The notes under the pieces are model-generated. The model saw only the letters and a program-made list of their open reading frames with translations, made no database searches and was not told where the DNA came from. A stretch of DNA of 64,000 nucleotides from an uncultured Pseudobdellovibrionaceae bacterium (GTDB lineage: Bacteria > Bdellovibrionota > FAC87 > UBA2466): assembly GCA_964653655.1 (NCBI GenBank), contig CAZZHG010000005.1:2631-66630 (forward strand), given 5' to 3'. The position numbers were made by a program, and so were the translations under genes. Shown in pieces: positions 5,453 to 45,391 of this stretch (the first letter of the stretch is position 1; every line of letters begins with the position of its first letter).

Positions 5453-6669
5453 AACGGGCGCTATTCCTATTTCCTTTCCTGCTCGCGGGCTGCGTGAAGA
5501 CGGGCTTTCCGTCTCTCATGTGCCAGCACCGGGGCTCCTGGAGCTCCGTCGACAACTTCGCGGTGGACGATACCAAGGATGCTGCCGGCTATCGCCCCAC
5601 TTCCGACAAGCTGGGAAACACTTTTATCGTCGGATACGGCACCGACTCCAGCAATACGGAACATTGGGTGGTCAGAAAGAGCGCCGATCGCGGCGCTACC
5701 TGGACGACGGTCGAAGACTTCCAGCTGAATAGCAACAAAGGCGCCATCGGCCTCGGAATTCTCTCTCAGCCCTCCGGCAATCTCTTCGCGGTCGGGTACG
5801 CTTATGACGCCTTGGCGAATCTGAATTGGGTAGTCCGAAAAAGCACCGACGCGGGAGCGACTTGGACCACCTCCGAAGCGTTTCAGCTCTCTGCGGGCCA
5901 GACCGCGACGGGCGATTCCATCACGCAGGATTCGGCGGGGGTACTTTACGCTTCCGGCGCCGCCGCCGACGGAACCGGAATGTTCCACTGGATCGTCCGT
6001 AAAAGCGCCGACAGCGGAACCACTTGGACCACGGTCGACGACTTCAATGCCGTCTCCGACAAGGATGCCTTTGCCGAGGGCGGAGTCTCGGACTCTTCCG
6101 GCGCGCTCTATATCGTCGGCAACGCGATGAACTCGACGTTCAACTCCCGGTGGACCGTGCGAAAGACGGTCGATGGCGGAACCACTTGGACGACTTCCGA
6201 CGATTACAGCAAGGAAAGCGACAAGAACGCGGCCGCAAGCGGCATCGCTGTCGACCACGGCACGTCGATTGTCGCCGTCGGCAACGCGACGACCTCGGCT
6301 TCCGTCCAGATGTGGACCATCCGCCGCAGTACCGACAACGGAGCCACCTGGTCCACGGTCGACGAGTTCACGCTAGCCGATGGCCAAGAGTCTCAAGCCA
6401 ACTCGGTTGTGCGGGATCCTTTCGGAAATTTCTACGTGGTGGGCAGTGCCGTGGACTCGAATGCGCTACGCCATCTCGTCCTGCGGAAATCTTCGGACGG
6501 CGGCGCCACCTGGTCCACGCTTCATGACTTCCAGCTATCGGCCGATGCCAACACATCCGGCTACCGGCTCAACTCCGATCCCGACGGCAACCTCTACGTC
6601 GTCGGACGGGGACAGACCGCTCCCGGTTCCTCCTACCGCTGGTTCACGCATCTTTTGAAATGCGAGTGA
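5449..6669 (+). CDS. Lipoprotein with six BNR/Asp-box repeats (predicted 6-bladed beta-propeller, sialidase-like fold).
   Basis: Lipobox LLAGC. Six repeats of the form W(I/V)VRKS(A/T)D(x)G(A/T)TW(T/S)T...F(Q/N) (SxDxGxTW Asp-boxes). There is a 4-bp ATGA overlap with the upstream gene. Confidence 0.75.
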   Translation: MKRALFLFPFLLAGCVKTGFPSLMCQHRGSWSSVDNFAVDDTKDAAGYRPTSDKLGNTFIVGYGTDSSNTEHWVVRKSADRGATWTTVEDFQLNSNKGAIGLGILSQPSGNLFAVGYAYDALANLNWVVRKSTDAGATWTTSEAFQLSAGQTATGDSITQDSAGVLYASGAAADGTGMFHWIVRKSADSGTTWTTVDDFNAVSDKDAFAEGGVSDSSGALYIVGNAMNSTFNSRWTVRKTVDGGTTWTTSDDYSKESDKNAAASGIAVDHGTSIVAVGNATTSASVQMWTIRRSTDNGATWSTVDEFTLADGQESQANSVVRDPFGNFYVVGSAVDSNALRHLVLRKSSDGGATWSTLHDFQLSADANTSGYRLNSDPDGNLYVVGRGQTAPGSSYRWFTHLLKCE

Positions 6670-6672
6670 GAA

Positions 6673-8655
6673 TCAACGGGAACCGCGCGGATTGGAGCGG
6701 CGTTCGGCGAGCGCGGCCCGGCCCATGAAGGCGAACAGCGTCTGAATGAGCTGATTGTTACGGCGGCTGCCCAGGTAATTTCCAATCAGTCCGAAGGTGA
6801 TGAGCAGACAGGTAAGCGTCGAAAGCACCTTCGCCCCTGAGTAGTCGTCCATCCAGTGGGCGAACAGGTGCAGCAGCAAAGCCCCGAGCAGCGGAACATA
6901 GCTCGTCAACCGGTTATAGAGGCGAGTCGTCTGCGCGACCATGCCCATCTCGATACGAGCTTGCGCCTGGACGTCCGACTCCTGTTTCCACAGCATGGGA
7001 TACAAGACCCGCACGCAGATGAACTGGATGAAGAGGCTCGAGTACCCGAGCGCCACGAGCCAGGCGAACAGGAACGAAACCATGAAATGCGCGAACACCG
7101 GGACCGCAAGCGCGCCCGAGTTCAGGTGGATGAAGAGCGGAAAGAGAACGCTCGAGGGCACCCAGCCTATCGTCGTAACGAGAGCGACCACCGCCGGAAG
7201 GCGAAGCACTCTCTTTCTCAAGAGCGCCTGCTTTTCCAAGGAGAGATCCGTTCGCTTCACGTACGGCAGAATTCCCCTGAGCGCCCAAACCCAGATGCCG
7301 AGACAAACCGCGTAAACGACCGGGTTGTAGACCACCATGAGCGATTTGAAATACGCCTGTTGCACCGACGACAATCGGCTCACAATCTCCAGCTGGTTGT
7401 ATAGGATGTTCACGGCGCTCGCCATTATCTGGGGCACGAGGCCGTAGAGAACGAGTCCGGTAAGAGGACTGCGAAAGCACACCGCCGCGAACCAGTTTCT
7501 GGGCGGCAGCTCCTTGTCGATGCGATAGCGCTCCAAAGCTCCCTTCAGGGCTTTCGCGAACGCACCGGCATCGGCAAATCTCTTCTCGGGATCCTTCTCC
7601 AGCGCCTTATCCAAAACGGTTTTCCAGGGCGCCTCGTCCCGGCAGGGGGGATCCCCGGCGAGGGCCAACCATTCCTTCAATACAATGGCGAGCGAGTAGA
7701 CGTCGGCGCGGCGATCGAGCTTTTTAATCGCGGCCGCCCGGTCTTCGGCGACAAACATCGCTTCCTGCTCGGGCGCCATGTATGCCTTCGTTCCGCCGAT
7801 TTGCCCGGAAGTACCGGCCACGTCTTCGAGCGAAAGAGACACATTGAAATCGCTGAGGAGAAACCGGCCGTAGAGATTGAGCAGGATGTTGGCCGGTTTG
7901 ACGTCGAGGTGAAGCACTCCCTGCTGATGGGCATACTGCAAAGTGTCCGCGAGCCGCGCTCCCGTCCACATCACCATCTCGAAGTAGTCGAGCTTCGCGA
8001 GCATCTCCCGAAACTGGAGACTCGACGGATGAAAGGGCACTTGATCCAGAATCTGCCCGTCGAGAATCTCGAGCACCGCCGCACCCGAGAGCTTTGATTT
8101 CGGAAACGCCCGAAGCTTTGTGAGAATCGTTTCGAGCGTCGCCCCGGGGATGTACTGCATGCACATGAAACGCAGGTTCCGGGCGGAGTCCACCGTGTCC
8201 GAGAACACTTTCACGATGTGATCGTGTTCCAGGGGCGCCATGAGGCGCGCCTCGCGGCCGGAGTTGCGGGACACTTTCAGAGCGACTTCCCGGCCGAGAG
8301 AGATTTGCCGGGCGAGATAGACATGGGCGATGCCGCCCCGGCCGAGACTACGCACGATCTCGAAGTCGCCGACGACGTCGCCCGTGGAGAACTCGGGAAG
8401 GCCTCCCTCGTCGAGCGCGATTCGTTCCAGCAGTTTCGGTCCGACGGGATTGGCGAGAAAAGTCCCCGAGCGCTCGTGGGACTCCGCGAGAGATTTCACT
8501 TCCTCGCTGAGGCGCGCGTCTTCGTGGCCGAGGGCCTCGAAGTACTCCGCCCTCGCCTCTTTACTCAAGGCGAGCGCGCGCTCGAGGCATTCGGCGACCC
8601 GATCCTGAAAGTCGGTGGCGACTTCAGTCTTTAGTTTGTTCTGTGCTGAGCTCAC
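6673..8655 (-). CDS. Membrane-anchored Ser/Thr protein kinase (Hanks-type), with a roughly 90-aa N-terminal extension and a C-terminal polytopic membrane domain.
   Basis: Kinase motifs are present: GxGxxG-like RSLGRGGIAHVY, the catalytic loop HLDVKPANILL, and the activation segment GTKAYMAPE. The C-terminal roughly 250 aa contains multiple hydrophobic helices. The start codon lies 32 bp inside the 3' end of the ECF sigma gene. Confidence 0.85.
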   Translation of the reverse strand: MSSAQNKLKTEVATDFQDRVAECLERALALSKEARAEYFEALGHEDARLSEEVKSLAESHERSGTFLANPVGPKLLERIALDEGGLPEFSTGDVVGDFEIVRSLGRGGIAHVYLARQISLGREVALKVSRNSGREARLMAPLEHDHIVKVFSDTVDSARNLRFMCMQYIPGATLETILTKLRAFPKSKLSGAAVLEILDGQILDQVPFHPSSLQFREMLAKLDYFEMVMWTGARLADTLQYAHQQGVLHLDVKPANILLNLYGRFLLSDFNVSLSLEDVAGTSGQIGGTKAYMAPEQEAMFVAEDRAAAIKKLDRRADVYSLAIVLKEWLALAGDPPCRDEAPWKTVLDKALEKDPEKRFADAGAFAKALKGALERYRIDKELPPRNWFAAVCFRSPLTGLVLYGLVPQIMASAVNILYNQLEIVSRLSSVQQAYFKSLMVVYNPVVYAVCLGIWVWALRGILPYVKRTDLSLEKQALLRKRVLRLPAVVALVTTIGWVPSSVLFPLFIHLNSGALAVPVFAHFMVSFLFAWLVALGYSSLFIQFICVRVLYPMLWKQESDVQAQARIEMGMVAQTTRLYNRLTSYVPLLGALLLHLFAHWMDDYSGAKVLSTLTCLLITFGLIGNYLGSRRNNQLIQTLFAFMGRAALAERRSNPRGSR

Positions 8656-38314: not shown

Positions 38315-38917
38315 TCACTCCGCTATTGCCGAGCCCTTCAGGAACGAAACGGACTTATCCATGGTGACCGGCCGGTTCTTCAGTTTGCTGCTATCTCGGA
38401 AGTACGACTTGTCCCCGAAATACAACACGTCGCCGAACCGTTGGACCACGTCATACGCGACGGTCCCCACCGAAACGGCTTCGCCGCTGCAGAAGAGGCC
38501 CGTGATGTCGCGCCGCTGACCCTGCTTCCAGTCGGTTATCTTGCAGAGCTTGGAGTCGTTGAACTCTTTCGCGGCTTTTTCTCCGTAAGCCGTAACTTTC
38601 AACTCCGTTATCGTGAAGTCGATGTTCTGGATCGTCGCGTTTTCCTTGGGCCCAGTGGCCAACTTGTACATGCCCGCGTAGGCACGCGCTTCCCATAGCG
38701 ATTCGATGGGGCAGGACCTTTCCGTGTAAAGCTTCTGCTCCCGCTTGAAATGATCGCCCCTCATGAACTCGAATTCCTCCTCCACCCACTTGCCGCGAGG
38801 ACCATCGTGGCAGGCCGCTCCCCACTTACCCGATAGCTCGATTTTGCCCTCAATGGCCCCGGCCACGCCCAGCTCCAACAGGCTCACCAGCACCAGTAAT
38901 GTCCGAATCGATCGCAT
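38315..38917 (-). CDS. Secreted hypothetical protein (200 aa).
   Basis: Signal peptide MRSIRTLLVLVSLLELGVAGA. Confidence 0.55.
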   Translation of the reverse strand: MRSIRTLLVLVSLLELGVAGAIEGKIELSGKWGAACHDGPRGKWVEEEFEFMRGDHFKREQKLYTERSCPIESLWEARAYAGMYKLATGPKENATIQNIDFTITELKVTAYGEKAAKEFNDSKLCKITDWKQGQRRDITGLFCSGEAVSVGTVAYDVVQRFGDVLYFGDKSYFRDSSKLKNRPVTMDKSVSFLKGSAIAE

Positions 38918-39002
38918 AGAAGCCTCCTTTTTCAGTCACTTGTGCAGGATGGGTGCCAGTTGGGGGTTTATTTGGGCCGGGATTTATGTTCAAACCTCCG
39001 CC

Positions 39003-40232
39003 ATGGCCCTAACCGAGCTCACCATCAACGCCCTTGGTCCCAAGGGGGACGGAATTCATCAGAATTCCCGCGGGCGGGTGTTCGTCGAGCGCACGGTCCC
39101 GGGCGACCGAGTGAAGGCGCGCCTCGAGCGGGACTCCATGGGGCTATCCCGGGGAGAAGTGATCGAAGTAATGCAGCCCTCGCGGTTTCGGATGAAGGCG
39201 CCCTGCCCTCACTACGAAGCCTGCGGCAATTGCACCCTCCAACATATAAATGAGGGTTTCTACCGGAACTGGAAGAAAGAGCTCGTGGGCGAGTCCTTCG
39301 CGAAGGTCGGGCTTCTTCCCCGGCGTTGGATACCGCCCGTGTTTCTGCCGGGCGCGAATCGCAGGCGCGCCACTTTTTCCGCGCGCCGGACGGGAAAGAA
39401 AATCCATTTTGGTTACTACCGCCGCCGGTCGAAGCTTTTGACCGACATCGATACCTGTCTCATCGCCGATCCTCGCATTCTGGAATTCAAGAAGGCTTTC
39501 GCCCCTCACCTTCCCTCCCTATTGAAGGCGGAAGAGACGCTAGACGTTTTCGTTCAGCTCGTGGGAGACCAGGTGGATGTGGTGCTCACGGGAAACGCCG
39601 TCTCTCCGAAGGTGCTTTCGGAGATCGGAATCACGCGCCTATCGGTGCGCGCGACCGAGAAGGACGAGCCTCGGATTCTCTTTCAAAAGACGCCCATCAC
39701 CACGAAGTTCGGCTCTCTAAAGGTGGAGCTGCCGCCCGGAGCCTTCCTTCAGCCGACTCTTGCGGGTGAAAAAGCACTGACCGACGCGGTTCTTGCCGCC
39801 CTTCCCGCGAAGGGCCGCTTCGCCGATCTTTTCTCGGGGTCCGGAACGTTCACGGGCCCGCTCTCGGCGCGGGGTCCGGTGGAAGCTTTCGAATCCACGC
39901 CTTCGGCCGTGAGAGCGCTCTCCAAAGCCGGCATTCGGGCGTTTCGGCGCGATCTTTTCAGACAACCCCTTCGCCGGGAGGAACTTCGCCGCTATGACGC
40001 CGTGGTCTTCGATCCGCCGCGGGCCGGCTGTGAAGCGCAGGCCGAGGCCCTTGCCCAAAGTGGCGTGCCGGTAGTGGTCGGCGTCTCCTGCAACCCGGCG
40101 ACTCTCGCCCGTGACGCCCGGATTCTGGCCGATGGCGGTTACTGGCTCCAAAGCCTCCAGCTCGTCGATCAATTTCTCTTCTCCCACCATGTCGAAGTGG
40201 TAGCGGTCTTTACGAAGAAACGCCGCCGCTAG
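39003..40232 (+). CDS. 23S rRNA (uracil-C5)-methyltransferase RumA/RlmD-like (TRAM, [4Fe-4S] and SAM-dependent methyltransferase domains).
   Basis: Internal Met MALTELTI. The TRAM-like N-terminus is followed by a Cys cluster, CPHYEACGNCTLQH. The class I methyltransferase motifs DLFSGSGTF and VVFDPPRAGC and the C-terminal catalytic Cys region VSCNPATLARD are present. Confidence 0.75.
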   Translation: MALTELTINALGPKGDGIHQNSRGRVFVERTVPGDRVKARLERDSMGLSRGEVIEVMQPSRFRMKAPCPHYEACGNCTLQHINEGFYRNWKKELVGESFAKVGLLPRRWIPPVFLPGANRRRATFSARRTGKKIHFGYYRRRSKLLTDIDTCLIADPRILEFKKAFAPHLPSLLKAEETLDVFVQLVGDQVDVVLTGNAVSPKVLSEIGITRLSVRATEKDEPRILFQKTPITTKFGSLKVELPPGAFLQPTLAGEKALTDAVLAALPAKGRFADLFSGSGTFTGPLSARGPVEAFESTPSAVRALSKAGIRAFRRDLFRQPLRREELRRYDAVVFDPPRAGCEAQAEALAQSGVPVVVGVSCNPATLARDARILADGGYWLQSLQLVDQFLFSHHVEVVAVFTKKRRR

Positions 40233-40246
40233 ATAATGCTGGCACC

Positions 40247-42319
40247 ATGAGCCTTACGGTCTACCGGCGCAAAAGAAAGTTCGATCAAACGCCGGAGCCC
40301 AAGGCCGACAAGAAACCCAAGAAATCGAAGGCCCTTCGTTTCGTCGTGCAAAAGCACGCGGCCACCCGCACTCACTACGATTTTCGGCTCGAATTGGACG
40401 GCGCCCTGCTCAGCTGGGCCGTTCCGAAAGGCCCGACTCTAACCTCCGGGGATCCTCGGCTTGCCGTTCACGTCGAGGATCATCCGATCGACTACGGCGA
40501 TTTCGAGGGAGTCATCCCGAAAGGCAACTACGGCGCCGGCACCGTGATGGTCTGGGACGCGGGCACTTACGTCGAGCGCGGCTCCACCGCGCGGGCCGAC
40601 AGCGAAAAGGCGATGCGCGCCGGAATGGAAAAGGGGCACGTCACCTTCGTGCTCGAAGGCGAGAAACTTCGGGGCGAGTTTGCGCTCGTCAAAATCAAGA
40701 AGAAGGGCGCTCCTCCGAACGGCTGGCTTCTCATTAAGAAGCACGACGCCGAAGCTTCCCGCCAGGACGTGACCAAACAGGACCGCTCCTGCGTCACGGG
40801 CCGATCGATGGAAGAGATCGCAAAGGCCGCCGACAGCGTGTGGATTCCGGGAAAGGGCCGCGCGAAGCAAGCGCCGAAGCGAGCGCCCTTGAAGAAGCCG
40901 CCTCGTCCGGCACCGAAGAAAGCTCCCGTGAAGGCAGCGCTCCCCCATCGGGTCCGCCCGATGGAACCGGTCTTCGCTCCCACGGCACCCACCGGCGGCG
41001 ATTGGATTTTCGAGACCTTCGGTGCGGGCCCGCGGGCTCTCGCGGAGGTGGAAGCCGGACAAGTGCGCCTGCACTCCAGGTCGCTCCTTCCTTTCGAGAA
41101 AAAGTATCCGGCGATTGTCAGCGCTTTGAGAAAACTCGGAACCACCGTGGTTCTCGACGGGGAAATCGTCGGCTCCAACTATCTGATTTCCGACGTGCTC
41201 TATATCGACGGCAAGGACCTTCGCGAGACCGCGCTTTCGGAGAGAAAGAAGCGGCTCGAATCGCTCGCCTTGAAGGCGCCCCTCCAGCTTGCGGAGCTCT
41301 TCGAAAAGCCGCCCGAGGCCGCGACCTATGTCGCGAAGAAGTCTGATTCGACTTATCGAAGCGGGCTTTCCCGCGATTGGCTCCGGATCAAGGGTGGCGG
41401 CACGAAGGGCAGGCCCGAACCGAAAACCAGCGAGTACCCGCCCCTCACCCATCCGAACAAAGTGTTTTGGCCCAAAGAGAAGATCACGAAGGGCGACCTC
41501 GCCGAGTACTACAAGAGCGTCGCGGATGTGATGCTCCCCTACATGAAGGACCGCCCGCAGTCTCTCCATCGTCAGCCCGACGGCTTGAAGAACGAAGGGT
41601 TCTTCCACAAGGACATGTCGGGTTTTCTTCCGCGCCGGATGGAGACGGTCCGGATCTGGTCGGGCTCCTCCGACCGGACGCTCAACTACGTTCTGTGTCA
41701 GGACAAGTGGGCGCTGCTCTATCTCGTGAACCTGGGCTGCATCGAGTTCAACCCGTGGCTTTCCAAGCGCCCGAAGCTCGAGAACCCCGACCAGGTGGTC
41801 ATCGATCTCGACCCGGACGACAACTCCTACGACGAAGTAGTGGAGGTCGCCCTCGAAGTGAGAAGAGTCCTCACTTCCATCGGCGCCGAGAGCTTTTGCA
41901 AGACGTCCGGCGCGAGCGGCATGCACATCGTGATCCCGACGGGCGCGAAGTTCGATTTCGATACGGGCCGGCTCTTCGCCGAAGCCGTCTGCAATGTCGT
42001 GCAAAAGAAGTTTCCCAAGAACACGAGCGTCGAGCGGACTCCCGCCAAACGCCGCCACAAGATCTACCTCGACTTCCTGCAGAACCGCCGCGGCCAGACT
42101 CTCGCGGCCCCCTACTGCGTCCGGCCCCGTCCGAATGCGACCGTATCGGCGCCGTTAAAGTGGTCGGAAGTGAAGAAGGGACTCACGCCGGAAGCCTTCA
42201 CCATCGAGACGATGGCTCGACGCATCGAGCGTGTGGGAGACCTCTGGAAGGGCACCCTCAATACCGCCGTCGACATCGAGGCCTGCCACAAGAGATTGCG
42301 AAAAAATTTTCACATTTAA
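40247..42319 (+). CDS. ligD: LigD-like multidomain protein: N-terminal 3'-phosphoesterase domain, a shortened ligase-like middle domain lacking the catalytic Lys, and a C-terminal primase-polymerase (LigD-Pol) domain.
   Basis: PE domain: RFVVQKHAATRTHYDFRLELDGALLSWAVPKGP. The middle domain has WIFETFGAGPRALA where ligases have EPKxDGxRA, then VLDGEIV (motif III-like), then YVAKKSDSTYRSGLSRDWLRIK (motif IV/V-like with EG changed to TY). No OB domain follows. Pol domain: VIDLDPDD, KTSGASGMHIVIP, YLDFLQNRRGQT. Confidence 0.75.
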   Translation: MSLTVYRRKRKFDQTPEPKADKKPKKSKALRFVVQKHAATRTHYDFRLELDGALLSWAVPKGPTLTSGDPRLAVHVEDHPIDYGDFEGVIPKGNYGAGTVMVWDAGTYVERGSTARADSEKAMRAGMEKGHVTFVLEGEKLRGEFALVKIKKKGAPPNGWLLIKKHDAEASRQDVTKQDRSCVTGRSMEEIAKAADSVWIPGKGRAKQAPKRAPLKKPPRPAPKKAPVKAALPHRVRPMEPVFAPTAPTGGDWIFETFGAGPRALAEVEAGQVRLHSRSLLPFEKKYPAIVSALRKLGTTVVLDGEIVGSNYLISDVLYIDGKDLRETALSERKKRLESLALKAPLQLAELFEKPPEAATYVAKKSDSTYRSGLSRDWLRIKGGGTKGRPEPKTSEYPPLTHPNKVFWPKEKITKGDLAEYYKSVADVMLPYMKDRPQSLHRQPDGLKNEGFFHKDMSGFLPRRMETVRIWSGSSDRTLNYVLCQDKWALLYLVNLGCIEFNPWLSKRPKLENPDQVVIDLDPDDNSYDEVVEVALEVRRVLTSIGAESFCKTSGASGMHIVIPTGAKFDFDTGRLFAEAVCNVVQKKFPKNTSVERTPAKRRHKIYLDFLQNRRGQTLAAPYCVRPRPNATVSAPLKWSEVKKGLTPEAFTIETMARRIERVGDLWKGTLNTAVDIEACHKRLRKNFHI

Positions 42320-42368: not shown

Positions 42369-43022
42369 GTGGAGGTCCTCGTTATGGCCAAGTCCACCGC
42401 AAAGGCGAAGGCGCCCAAGAAAGAAAAGAAAGCCGCCGCTCCGAAGAAGGAATTCTTCAAGACGCGAAAAACCCGCGAGCCGGAGCTCGAAGCGGGCGAC
42501 ACGATCACGCCGCCGGAAGAAATCCAGCAGGCCATCGACGCCTTCCGCGATGCCCAGGAGCAGATGAAGCACTTCGAGGGCGAAGCGACCGTGCAAAAGG
42601 ACGCCATCAACGACTTCGCGCTGAAGGAGTATTCGAAGCGCGTGACGAAGGGCAAAGGCCGGTCGTTCAAGTTGCTGGGCGATCAGAGCATGGTGACCTA
42701 CGTAGTAATGGACGCGAGCGCCGGTCTCACCGAGGAAGAAGTCGAGGCGTTCAAGGAGCAATGGGGCGAGGACGCGGCCGATGAGCTCATCACGCGCGAT
42801 CTGGCGAGCATCCGTTTCGACGGGGCGGTTTTGGAAGCGAATTACGAAGCGGTGGTCGAAGCCCTGCAAGTCCTGCCGAAAGACGTGCTCGAGAATCTCT
42901 TCAAGCCGATGCTCATGAAGGCCACCAAGGGGGCCGTCGAAAAGGCGAAGAACTTCGCGAAGAACGCCGACGAGCTTCAGGAATTAATTCGGCAACTTAA
43001 GATACGTAATTACATCCGCTAA
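42369..43022 (+). CDS. Lysine-rich hypothetical protein (histone-H1-like N-terminal tail), not Ku.
   Basis: MAKSTAKAKAPKKEKKAAAPKK is followed by an acidic helical domain. An RBS-like GGTGGAGG precedes the start. It sits between the LigD-like gene and the mini-ligase gene. Confidence 0.55.
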   Translation: MEVLVMAKSTAKAKAPKKEKKAAAPKKEFFKTRKTREPELEAGDTITPPEEIQQAIDAFRDAQEQMKHFEGEATVQKDAINDFALKEYSKRVTKGKGRSFKLLGDQSMVTYVVMDASAGLTEEEVEAFKEQWGEDAADELITRDLASIRFDGAVLEANYEAVVEALQVLPKDVLENLFKPMLMKATKGAVEKAKNFAKNADELQELIRQLKIRNYIR

Positions 43023-43067: not shown

Positions 43068-43676
43068 ATGGGGTTTGGGGATCCGCGCAGTGTTTTGACC
43101 GCGACTATTTTTACCCGGCGCCCTCTCATGCCTTCTTCTCTTTTCATCAAAGCGATGCACCCGAAGTCGGAGATTAGCCCCGACGCCCAGTCCATCGAAC
43201 GGGTTTTGAAAATGGGTTGGGTGGGCCAGTTGAAGATCCATGGCCACCGCGCGCAGATTCACATTCCTTCCGATCCGAAGGAAAAGCCCATCGCCTACAA
43301 CCGCCAGGGCCGTAAGCACAAGCTCGCCTTGCCCCCTTCGATGGTGAAGGAGCTGTACCGGCTGTTCCGCCCCGAAAAGGGCTGGAACGTGATCGACGCC
43401 GAATGGCTCAAGCCCGAAGAGAAGCTCTACGTTTTCGATTTCCTGAAAAAGGACGGCGAAATTCAACGCCCCAAGACTTTCCCCGAGCGCTGGGCGCTAC
43501 TGCCCCGCGCGTTTCTGTCCCCGCACATTCAGGTGCTGCCGCTATTTAGGGACCTGCCCGCTTGTCTGAAGGCGATGGCCACTCCCGGCGACCACATCGA
43601 AGGCCTCGTCTTCAAGTCGACGAGCTCGACGGGCTTCTCGGATACGTCGATCGTCCGCTGCCGCCGCAAAAAGTGA
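43068..43676 (+). CDS. Short ATP-dependent ligase-like nucleotidyltransferase domain protein (motif I is KIHGHR instead of KxDGxR).
   Basis: WVGQLKIHGHRAQIHI (motif I-like, Lys retained, Asp replaced by His). AYNRQGRKH, IDAEWL (motif III-like), LYVFDFLKKDGEIQRPKTFPERWALL, and EGLVFK (motif IV) are in ligase order. It is only about 180-200 aa, the start is uncertain, and its stop codon lies inside the left direct repeat of the adjacent mobile element. Confidence 0.5.
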   Translation: MGFGDPRSVLTATIFTRRPLMPSSLFIKAMHPKSEISPDAQSIERVLKMGWVGQLKIHGHRAQIHIPSDPKEKPIAYNRQGRKHKLALPPSMVKELYRLFRPEKGWNVIDAEWLKPEEKLYVFDFLKKDGEIQRPKTFPERWALLPRAFLSPHIQVLPLFRDLPACLKAMATPGDHIEGLVFKSTSSTGFSDTSIVRCRRKK

Positions 43677-43692
43677 AGCGTTCCGCATTGAA

Positions 43693-43722
43693 CCAAAAGG
43701 TGCGGCCTCACTTCTGGCTTTC
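43693..43722. repeat. Left inverted repeat of the Y1-transposase element.
   Basis: CCAAAAGGTGCGGCCTCACTTCTGGCTTTC is the exact reverse complement of 44433-44462. Confidence 0.8.
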
Positions 43723-44379
43723 GTCCTCTCGAAATTGAATAGGTATTTCCCGAGTCCGGCGAACTCGACCGAAGACGAACTTACGACGATAGAGCGCCTT
43801 GCGTAGAACCTCAACGTGCTCGGCATCGTAGGGCTCATCCAACCAGTCGCACCATCGGTAGATTCCTTTACGAGCAAGATTGAGCGAAAGAGATTTTTCA
43901 AATGGGTGAGACGAAAGATGAACTTCATAGGGCCGATCCAGTAGAAATCCACCAGCGGTGCTGAAACGATAGTCCGAGACGCGTGTTACGATTCCTTGCC
44001 GAACTGGATTTTGATAGATGTATCGAAAAACGTGGTGGTATTGAAACCAGTTATCGATAAGCGTCCACTTGTAGGGACCCCCGAAGACATGATTTATCCG
44101 ATCGGCTCGGGAGTTGATTTCATCACTAACTCCCTTCAAAAGGCGGCACATCACAGCATCAATGCCTATCGCGGGTGCGCTTGCAAGAATGTGATAATGA
44201 TTCGACATCAGAACGAAGGCGTGAACCTGTAGCCCCCACTTCTCGATTACCCAATTCAACTGCCCTACAAAGACGTTCCATACTTCTTGCGGCGGTAGAT
44301 AGAACCACTCGCGATTGTTAGAACGCCCGTAAAGGTGGTACGGGAGGCTTGTGCTTCGAATCAGACGTCTCCGAGCCAT
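43708..44379 (-). CDS. Y1 HuH tyrosine transposase (IS200-like / REP-associated tyrosine transposase family).
   Basis: The HuH motif VLMSNHYHILAS and a C-terminal catalytic Tyr context YIYQNPVRQGIV are present. At 223 aa it is larger than classical IS200 TnpA. Confidence 0.7.
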   Translation of the reverse strand: MARRRLIRSTSLPYHLYGRSNNREWFYLPPQEVWNVFVGQLNWVIEKWGLQVHAFVLMSNHYHILASAPAIGIDAVMCRLLKGVSDEINSRADRINHVFGGPYKWTLIDNWFQYHHVFRYIYQNPVRQGIVTRVSDYRFSTAGGFLLDRPYEVHLSSHPFEKSLSLNLARKGIYRWCDWLDEPYDAEHVEVLRKALYRRKFVFGRVRRTREIPIQFREDESQK

Positions 44380-44432
44380 GGGGAGAACAGATACACTCTC
44401 TGTAAGTAAACGCTAGAAGGTATGGGGGGCGT

Positions 44433-44462
44433 GAAAGCCAGAAGTGAGGCCGCACCTTTTGG
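44433..44462. repeat. Right inverted repeat of the Y1-transposase element.
   Basis: GAAAGCCAGAAGTGAGGCCGCACCTTTTGG is the exact reverse complement of 43693-43722. Confidence 0.8.
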
Positions 44463-44539
44463 CTGCGCCGCAAAAAGTGAAGCGTTCCGCATAATCTCTC
44501 TTTCAAGACCCGCCTCGCTCATTCCGAAAAATATAGAGT

Positions 44540-45391
44540 ATGGGAAAGCCTCGTGTCGGCATTTCCGGTTGGACCTTTCCGGCGTGGCGCGGAACGTTCT
44601 ACCCGAAAGACCTCGTTCAAAAGAAAGAGCTGGAGTACGCAAGCCGCCAGCTCACCTCCATCGAAATCAACGGCACTTTCTATTCCCTTCAGCGGCCGGC
44701 GACGTTTCAGTCCTGGTACGATCAAACTCCCGACGATTTTCAATTCGCGGTAAAGGCGCCTCAGTTCATTACGCACATCCTGCGCCTCAAGGAGCCGGCC
44801 GAGCCGCTCGCCAACTTTTTCGCTTCGGGTCTGCTCAACCTGCGCGAAAAGCTCGGACCCATCCTTTGGCAATTTCCGCCGAACGTGATGCTCAAAGACG
44901 ATCGCTTCGAAAAGTTTTTGAAGCTGCTTCCGTGGGACGCGAAATCGGCATCGAAGCTTGCGAAGAAGCACGGCGAGAAAGTGGAAGGCCGCGCGGTAAC
45001 CAAAGTGGAAGGACAATTCCCGGTTCGCCACGCCTTCGAGTTCCGCCACAAGAGCTTTCTGAACGAAGACTTCCTCGCGACTCTGCGCTCTCACAACGTC
45101 GCTTTCGTCTTTGCCCACGAGGGCGGTGAAAAAACTCCCTACACGGAAGAGCCCACCGCGGACTTCATCTACGCCAGACTCCACGGCGAGGGGAAACCCT
45201 ATGCGAAGGGTTACCCCGATCGCGAAATCGCAAAATGGACCAAGAAAGTAGCGTCCTGGTCCAAATCGGGCCTCGATTGTTACGTTTATTTCAGCAACGA
45301 AGCCAAGCTCCACTCTCCTGCCGGGGCCGCTAAGCTGCTGAGAGCGCTCGGACTGGCCCCCGCTCTCTCCAAAGGCAAGAAGGCCGCCTAA
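44540..45391 (+). CDS. DUF72 (YecE-like) family protein.
   Basis: N-terminal GISGWTFPAWRGTFYP is characteristic of DUF72/UPF0759 proteins. Total length 283 aa. Confidence 0.65.
   Translation: MGKPRVGISGWTFPAWRGTFYPKDLVQKKELEYASRQLTSIEINGTFYSLQRPATFQSWYDQTPDDFQFAVKAPQFITHILRLKEPAEPLANFFASGLLNLREKLGPILWQFPPNVMLKDDRFEKFLKLLPWDAKSASKLAKKHGEKVEGRAVTKVEGQFPVRHAFEFRHKSFLNEDFLATLRSHNVAFVFAHEGGEKTPYTEEPTADFIYARLHGEGKPYAKGYPDREIAKWTKKVASWSKSGLDCYVYFSNEAKLHSPAGAAKLLRALGLAPALSKGKKAA

Follow-up and report, generated by a model that had tools for sequence, protein, structure and literature searches.

The locus considered here raises the question of which protein seals DNA ends for a repair operon whose LigD-like enzyme has a dead ligase domain. 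It lies in a 64,000-nucleotide (nt) stretch of DNA from an uncultured Pseudobdellovibrionaceae bacterium (assembly GCA_964653655.1, contig CAZZHG010000005.1, positions 2,631 to 66,630), which we call the window. There, a LigD-like gene without the adenylation lysine is followed, as its second neighbour on the 3′ side, by a small open reading frame (ORF) with ligase motifs; this arrangement, noted in a preliminary description of the same DNA, holds, the lysine position of the LigD-like protein being occupied by Phe258. We propose that the small protein, here termed the mini-ligase, and the product of the intervening gene, X, form a polynucleotide ligase (most likely for DNA) encoded by two genes, with the mini-ligase as the catalytic subunit and X as the second. 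We give this reading a probability of about 60%. As judged from sequence comparison, the mini-ligase probably seals for the neighbouring LigD-like repair enzyme. Coordinates of all features are collected in Table 1.

The mini-ligase ORF runs on the + strand from an ATG at 43068 to a TGA at 43674–43676. The preliminary description put it at about 190 residues; the ORF is real, and its actual length is 202. The ligase motifs quoted there are all present and in the order given, the motif I region reading GWVGQLKIHGHR, and the set indeed stops at the point at which a ligase would continue into its OB domain, with the C-terminus three residues past motif V. A C-terminal OB domain carrying motif VI is absent both from the structural model, which has a single domain, and from the family, whose members have 170–210 residues.

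AlphaFold2 (AF2), given 96 homologues, yields a confident model (pLDDT 93.5, pTM 0.86) with one alpha/beta domain. Compared with the PDB by Foldseek, this model is closest to the adenylation domains of archaeal DNA ligases and of human Lig1, Lig3 and Lig4 (E about 1e-9, probability 1.00, TMq 0.61–0.68 among the 50 matches listed; 103 matches have E ≤ 1e-3). Next in the ranking comes snurportin, which has a capping-enzyme-like nucleotidyltransferase (NTase) fold, and the top 50 matches consist of DNA ligases and snurportin. The family profile, run against PDB sequences, returns Lig4, Lig1 and archaeal ligases at E 1e-11 to 1e-9 and Mycobacterium tuberculosis LigD at 1e-3. The homology to the ligase/capping NTase fold that had been predicted for this ORF is therefore real: it is weak in Pfam, but both the model and the profile find ligase adenylation domains. 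Precomputed matches to DNA_ligase_A_M (PF01068) exist on many homologues, and are weak or faint at the loci that show a mark. Its NTase fold, its motif I lysine and the succession of motifs III, IIIa, IV and V place the mini-ligase in the covalent nucleotidyltransferase superfamily; it is a complete, constrained ligase-type NTase domain without an OB domain.

The constraint is visible across a large family. In a set of 5.8 billion proteins there are 387 homologues at E ≤ 1e-3 (the 120 listed have 172–239 residues), and an exhaustive profile search gives 256 representative clusters at 50% identity, 170–210 residues long, of which 58 have E ≤ 1e-30. In an alignment of 96 sequences, whose columns average 51% identity, 34 positions never vary, among them K56, G59, H60, R61, R79, D110, E112, F123, D124, E178, G179, R197 and R199. 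A motif match of this kind goes far beyond what chance would produce. Substitution is absent or nearly so at the Lys of motif I, the Glu of motif III, the Glu and Lys of motif IV and the two basic residues of motif V, a pattern expected for chemistry and not for binding alone. It argues against a mini-ligase that is a non-catalytic or regulatory NTase-fold protein, for example one that binds ATP/AMP or a 5′-adenylate or pairs with X as an acidic regulator, while the host's NAD+-dependent LigA or another ligase performs the sealing. Such a role would accommodate the missing OB domain and motif VI, the Arg-x-Arg of motif V, the acidic core of X and a few members without the lysine; catalytically dead ligases, moreover, reportedly can still promote repair (PMC9638927). 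Given the conservation of the catalytic residues, we regard this explanation as quite improbable.

The few stand-alone members that lack the motif I lysine are P0246, P0288 and P0310 (YWLGHW, TTVGKR and SIAGPR, respectively). They may be inactivated paralogues, or sequencing or assembly errors.

Motif I carries a histidine that had been read as a changed aspartate, and in evolutionary terms this is correct. Distant stand-alone members (about 35–45% identity) have the canonical KxNGxR or KxDGxR, and two members from LigD operons keep the aspartate (KIDGHR at locus L029 and KMDGHR at L032); among the sampled sequences, KxHGxR occurs 188 times, KxNGxR 32 times and KxDGxR six times. A rough neighbour-joining tree, which carries no support values, places the KIHGHR sequences of the LigD operons in a single, shallow clade nested within diverse D/N-type sequences. 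Beyond the family, the next relatives appear at E about 1e-7; they have about 270–400 residues, with the NTase match internal or N-terminal, and those sampled are interpreted, from their sequences, as NTase+OB and WGR+NTase+OB DNA ligases.

The motif I of T4 RNA ligase 2 (Rnl2), EKIHGTN (PDB 1S68, 2HVQ), has a KIHG core identical to that of the mini-ligase. Because of this, and because Asp and His interchange among the LigD-operon members, the histidine is compatible with ligase chemistry. The identity also favours a role for the mini-ligase in RNA ligation or RNA repair, or in adenylylating some other substrate, as does the RNA_ligase profile (PF09414), which aligns over nearly its whole length (positions 3–161 of 171), weakly (E 0.007). 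OB-less NTase domains are normal among RNA ligases, the isolated NTase domain of Rnl2 (PDB 1S68) is able to self-adenylylate, and RRM_1 genes stand beside the X–mini-ligase module at two loci (L045 and L046). However, the family profile recovers no RNA ligase from the PDB at E ≤ 0.1, its matches being DNA ligases and snurportin like the top 50 of Foldseek; the PF09414 match is below threshold; and an Rnl2-type C-terminal domain is lacking. In addition, the next relatives read as DNA ligases, the motif I His is derived from D/N, and the bacterial context is a DNA-end-processing operon. Since the overall affinities of the mini-ligase are with DNA ligases, we read the resemblance to Rnl2 as convergent and consider an RNA-directed enzyme rather unlikely. 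A ligase favouring a 3′-ribonucleotide at a DNA nick would fit both the DNA- and the RNA-ligase readings.

We scanned one genome per GTDB species, which returned 39 loci; all those informatively labelled belong to Bdellovibrionota, in the classes Bdellovibrionia, Bacteriovoracia and Oligoflexia, and the cultured Oligoflexus tunisiensis Shr3 carries the LigD–X–mini-ligase operon. In the window the three genes form a compact cluster on one strand, followed by an inserted element and a DUF72 gene, and in four orthologues the intergenic gaps are about 40–70 nt. The LigD-like gene is found on the 5′ side wherever the contig reaches, with two exceptions: at L016 it is divergent, and at L039 there is none within 9 kb upstream.

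A homologue of X lies directly 5′ of the mini-ligase in 43 of 43 loci, with a gap that is usually 40–150 nt, and does so also in six distinct contexts of the distant type (L044, L045, L046/47, L048, L052 and L053/54; hmmsearch E 1e-20 to 1e-85). The X family numbers 415 proteins, against 387 for the mini-ligase. X is thus an obligate partner of the mini-ligase, one that the preliminary description overlooked. None of the 120 X members listed has a Pfam domain, and no relatives of X were found in Pfam, PHROG, PDB or BFVD. Its AF2 model (pLDDT 79) has a disordered, Lys-rich N-terminal tail, a 44-residue helix (residues 50–93), an alpha/beta core and a conserved C-terminal strand, LKIRNYIR. The tail (42384..42480) is basic and contains a short K-x-DPFK/T motif common to the bacterial and the phage-type proteins (L045, L046, L048, L052 and L053); the remainder of X is acidic (pI 4.8).

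At three loci an extra ORF, of 44, 72 or 200 residues, stands between X and the mini-ligase (L045 611..745, L048 7862..8080 and L052 895..1497, respectively). None of the three matches X or the PHROGs tested.

The distant, D/N-type members have an X homologue just 5′ and no LigD in every context retrieved (the six listed above), and several of these contexts are of phage type. L046, part of a 160-kb contig, has PHROG matches to a UvsX-like recombinase, a Cas4-type exonuclease, a RuvC-like resolvase and HNH endonucleases; L048 has HNH, an S-AdoMet lyase and phage-only PHROGs; and L053 has ThyX and a gene for Amidase_2, a domain that phage endolysins typically carry. A remote relative on an IMG/VR viral contig (L049) is the sole one from the single-protein scans of IMG/VR, and the gene 5′ of it gives no match to X. 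The mini-ligase family is not found in GenBank phage records (tblastn against INPHARED, cultured phages), and it has no PHROG of its own, only a weak match to a generic ligase PHROG. Because the phage-type contexts have X and no LigD, the mini-ligase travels with X rather than with LigD, and the functional unit appears to be X plus mini-ligase, not LigD plus mini-ligase.

Small RRM_1 genes occur beside X and the mini-ligase in two independent phage-type contigs (L045 1618..1884 and L046 7818..8090). This may be a coincidence or a hint of an RNA-related role.

What, then, has happened to the ligase of LigD itself? The LigD-like protein has the 3′-phosphoesterase (PE) and primase-polymerase (Pol) domains of the LigD family (LigD_N, E 3e-41; LigD_Prim-Pol, E 3e-87), and PE and Pol domains of known structure are matched at E 5e-50 and 4e-57, respectively. 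The NCBIfam models TIGR02777 and TIGR02778 exceed their cut-offs, whereas TIGR02779 reaches 69 bits of the 228 required, and a functional ligase domain, with motif I Lys, NTase and OB, is missing. The central region still aligns with the ligase domain of M. tuberculosis LigD over motifs I–III and IIIa, but its motif I reads FETFGAGPR in place of FEG(K)WDGYR, Phe258 replacing the nucleophile. The Phe is found in four close LigD orthologues, and L, W or Q occupies the position in Oligoflexia and other distant lineages; no lineage examined retains the lysine. Since the LigD-like protein has lost its adenylation lysine, a ligase acting in trans is the natural reading for this operon.

The preliminary description had suggested more specifically that the mini-ligase might supply the missing lysine. 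As a trans-acting ligase for the operon this can stand; as repair of the dead LigD site as such it is not supported. In favour of a mini-ligase that docks on the pseudo-ligase domain to form a composite ligase, with LigD as its obligate partner, are strict synteny of the two genes in Bdellovibrionota, a pseudo-ligase that keeps recognizable motifs III, IIIa, IV and V at a median identity of 43%, and an N-terminal peptide of the mini-ligase that is confined to LigD-operon members. However, no ligase motif of this NTase domain needs to be borrowed, since the mini-ligase carries them all; as an OB domain is lacking from both proteins, pairing them would not make good that gap; phage-type contexts have the module but no LigD, as does L039 (within 9 kb upstream); and locus L011 lacks the pseudo-ligase yet keeps X and the mini-ligase. 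We therefore think it quite improbable that LigD, rather than X, is the partner with which the mini-ligase makes its active enzyme.

At L011 the LigD-like gene (5975..7615) has a PE–Pol linker of about 66 residues in place of the central domain, and about 1.7 kb separates it from X; X and the mini-ligase are intact there. The median identity to the query is lowest for the pseudo-ligase, at the value given above, compared with 60% for PE, 55% for Pol, 62% for X and 55% for the mini-ligase. We also considered that the mini-ligase arose by fission of the LigD ligase domain, and rejected this: the pseudo-ligase is still there, and the two are unrelated beyond the superfamily level, hhalign giving a probability of 2%. 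The mini-ligase is not a copy of the pseudo-domain.

The clade-specific peptide bears on the start of the gene. The NCBI model of the mini-ligase begins at M21 and has 182 residues (P0001), which cuts off a peptide of the LPGIFExTIFSR type. In the Bdellovibrionota loci the frame 5′ of the conserved FIxAMHPK segment is open, and the peptide is conserved in amino acids while its third codon positions vary synonymously; we therefore favour the start at 43068. Phage-type members lack the peptide and begin directly at M-x-FIxxxHPK. The peptide may be a docking motif.

Taken together, these observations suggest the following scheme. Lys56 would be adenylylated by ATP, and X would stand in for the OB domain with its motif VI, by binding DNA, by helping in step 1 or both; the basic tail of X could touch DNA while its acidic core touches the basic NTase. 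The pair would then seal the 3′-OH/5′-PO4 ends made ready by the LigD Pol, through ribonucleotide addition, and by PE, through 3′ trimming. The LPGIFExTIF peptide, found only in LigD-operon members, may tether the mini-ligase to the LigD scaffold. Rnl2-type enzymes seal nicks with a 3′-OH ribonucleotide, an activity that would suit the products of LigD Pol and PE. In known systems LigD Pol prefers to add ribonucleoside monophosphates, PE trims to one 3′-ribonucleotide, and the canonical ligase domain favours such nicks (PMC8656161). A ligase tuned to 3′-ribo nicks may thus suit the LigD pathway, and the Rnl2-like histidine may relate to this. As to origin, the module was presumably captured once from phages, in which X and the mini-ligase would be the phage's own ligase, and it would have displaced the cis ligase domain of LigD, now a decaying structural linker or relic. 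For such a relic there is an analogy in Lig4, the catalytically inactive form of which reportedly still promotes repair (PMC9638927).

Several observations weigh against a two-subunit ligase. Motif VI of the OB domain is required for step 1, and to our knowledge no OB-less DNA ligase has been characterized. According to a review, DNA ligation needs at least a scaffold of NTase plus OB (PMC7470946), and on both counts an OB-less enzyme lacks a characterized precedent among DNA ligases. Motif V of the mini-ligase is Arg-x-Arg (R-C-R) instead of the usual Lys-x-Lys of ligases. In Pfam the mini-ligase alone stays below the cut-offs, with DNA_ligase_A_M at E 0.002 (18.1 bits against 26.2, residues 43–113 aligned) and RNA_ligase at 17.0 bits against 27. 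Because X has an acidic core and shows no recognizable DNA-binding or OB fold, its role is a conjecture, and X could be a regulator or inhibitor instead of a ligase subunit. Finally, Ku was not found near the operon: PF02735 is not among the precomputed Pfam matches within 8 kb on either side at L001, L002 and L004, and tblastn with gp87 of mycobacteriophage Corndog, which we take to be a Ku protein, found nothing in the window and the other 50 loci (best E 1.3), although this is a weak test.

It is possible, but somewhat doubtful, that X and the mini-NTase constitute an unrecognized class of two-subunit ATP-dependent DNA ligases, in which an X of novel fold replaces the OB domain including motif VI, and which originated in uncultured phages and was captured once by Bdellovibrionota, displacing the LigD ligase domain in three classes.

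Comparison with known systems helps to define what is unusual here. The PE–central–Pol order of the operon's first gene is that of LigD from Pseudomonas aeruginosa and M. tuberculosis, and the operon presumably heals and seals broken ends as they do, be it in non-homologous end joining or in another kind of break repair. Compared with canonical LigD, however, the cis ligase domain is shortened and lacks the motif I Lys and the OB domain, and the candidate ligase is a separate protein of 202 residues, closer to the adenylation domains of Lig1, Lig4 and archaeal ligases than to that of LigD. X occupies the place where Ku often sits in canonical non-homologous end-joining loci, and Ku was not found nearby. 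The minimal ligases (Chlorella virus ligase, Lig E and Lig C) have motifs I, Ia, III, IIIa, IV and V in the same order and an NTase domain of similar size, but they combine NTase with OB (PMC7470946), whereas the mini-ligase stops after motif V, has R-C-R there and KxHGxR in motif I. With T4 Rnl2 (PDB 1S68) and PF09414 it shares the KIHG core, an OB-less NTase domain and a weak full-length alignment; it differs from Rnl2 in that its searches recover no RNA ligase, in lacking the C-terminal domain, and in its histidine, which recently took the place of D/N in a family resembling DNA ligases. Ligase IV–XRCC4 offers an analogy only, that of a ligase with a dedicated non-catalytic partner bearing a long helix, like residues 50–93 of X; homology was not detected, Lig4 has its own OB and DNA-binding domains, and the pairing of X with the mini-ligase is predicted.

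In fold and chemistry the mini-ligase falls within a known superfamily, and its operon is of the LigD repair type. In the searchable literature we found no family of DNA-ligase-like proteins without OB that has an obligate partner whose fold is unknown, no sharing of such a family between phages and a bacterial repair operon, and neither a phylum-wide loss of LigD's own ligase nor a LigD with an NTase-only ligase in trans, although absence there is not proof of novelty. The family would be an abundant natural exception to the minimum of NTase and OB on one polypeptide (PMC7470946). If the mini-ligase is active, the roles of the OB domain in step-1 chemistry and in clamping DNA could be supplied in trans, and protein engineers would have a ligase core of roughly 180 residues. 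Activity would also imply a phylum-wide swap of the LigD ligase for a module most likely derived from phages, and would explain why the LigD genes of Bdellovibrionota look 'dead'. Because Oligoflexus tunisiensis Shr3 is cultured and has the operon, the question is directly testable.

Table 1. Features of the locus, with position in the window, strand and remarks.
LigD-like protein	40247..42319	+	690 aa; PE, pseudo-ligase, Pol order
3′-Phosphoesterase (PE) motif HYDFRLE	40373-40393	+	LigD-like protein
Pseudo-ligase domain	about 40952-41440 (about aa 236-398)	+	shortened, ~160 aa; no OB domain
Phe258	41018-41020	+	in motif I lysine position of LigD-like protein
Primase-polymerase motif VIDLDP	41798-41815	+	LigD-like protein
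Gene X	42369..43022	+	217 aa from GTG 42369; 212 aa from ATG 42384; between LigD-like gene and mini-ligase
Mini-ligase ORF	43068..43676	+	202 aa; stand-alone ATP-ligase-type NTase domain; no OB domain
Clade-specific N-terminal peptide	43089..43121	+	SVLTATIFTRR in the window; LPGIFExTIFSR in most Bdellovibrionota orthologues (L001-L043)
Motif I KIHGHR	43233-43250	+	mini-ligase; K56 codon 43233-43235
Motif Ia YNRQG	43296-43310	+	mini-ligase aa 77-81
Motif III IDAEWL	43392-43409	+	mini-ligase aa 109-114; D110, E112
Motif IIIa VFDFL	43431-43445	+	mini-ligase; VFDFL...PERWALL is aa 122-145; F123, D124
Motif IV EGLVFK	43599-43616	+	mini-ligase aa 178-183; E178, G179, K183
Motif V VRCRRKK	43653-43673	+	mini-ligase aa 196-202, then stop; R197, R199
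Inserted element	43662..44492		27-nt direct repeats, 30-nt inverted repeats, Y1 transposase ORF
Perfect 27-nt direct repeats	43662-43688 and 44466-44492		just outside inverted repeats
Perfect 30-nt inverted repeats	43693-43722 and 44433-44462		two copies only in the window
Y1 (IS200/RAYT-like) transposase ORF	43708..44379	-	223 aa
DUF72 gene	44540..45391	+	adjoins operon in 30 of 40 non-redundant loci; split from mini-ligase by the transposase insertion in the window

The transposase element that follows the mini-ligase in the window could suggest that the gene is a degenerate remnant, a pseudogene truncated by the insertion, and the preliminary description allowed for a remnant, as well as for a 3′ end remodelled by the element. 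Its observation that the stop codon lies inside the left direct repeat is accurate: the repeat holds the last four codons of the mini-ligase and the stop. At transposase-free syntenic loci, however, the orthologues have 202–207 residues and end ...SIVRCRK(R/K)x, like the protein in the window. Since the native 3′ end survives in the direct repeat and the transposase-free orthologues end alike, the insertion has duplicated that end and not altered it. A large, clearly constrained family of near-constant length and a confident AF2 model are likewise at odds with a remnant, which we find scarcely credible.

The perfect repeats of the element suggest a recent insertion. A target-site duplication of 27 nt would be unusually long, and elements of the IS200/IS605 group do not normally generate any.

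The ORF just 5′ of the LigD-like gene (38763..40232) is TRAM/RNA (uracil-5)-methyltransferase-like, with 489 residues as listed, of which the N-terminal part is probably over-extended; this neighbour is not kept at other loci. The DUF72 neighbour is conserved more widely (Table 1) and may be a fourth component of the LigD–X–mini-ligase repair module. Computational work has predicted that DUF72 (Tm1631) acts in DNA repair as an endonuclease-IV-like enzyme (PMC3828134, PMC4939058). Besides the window, the DUF72 gene was noted at L037 (5814..6956), L030 and L033; in Oligoflexus it lies just 5′ of LigD, and its product has a long, Lys/Ala-rich C-terminal tail resembling histone H1.

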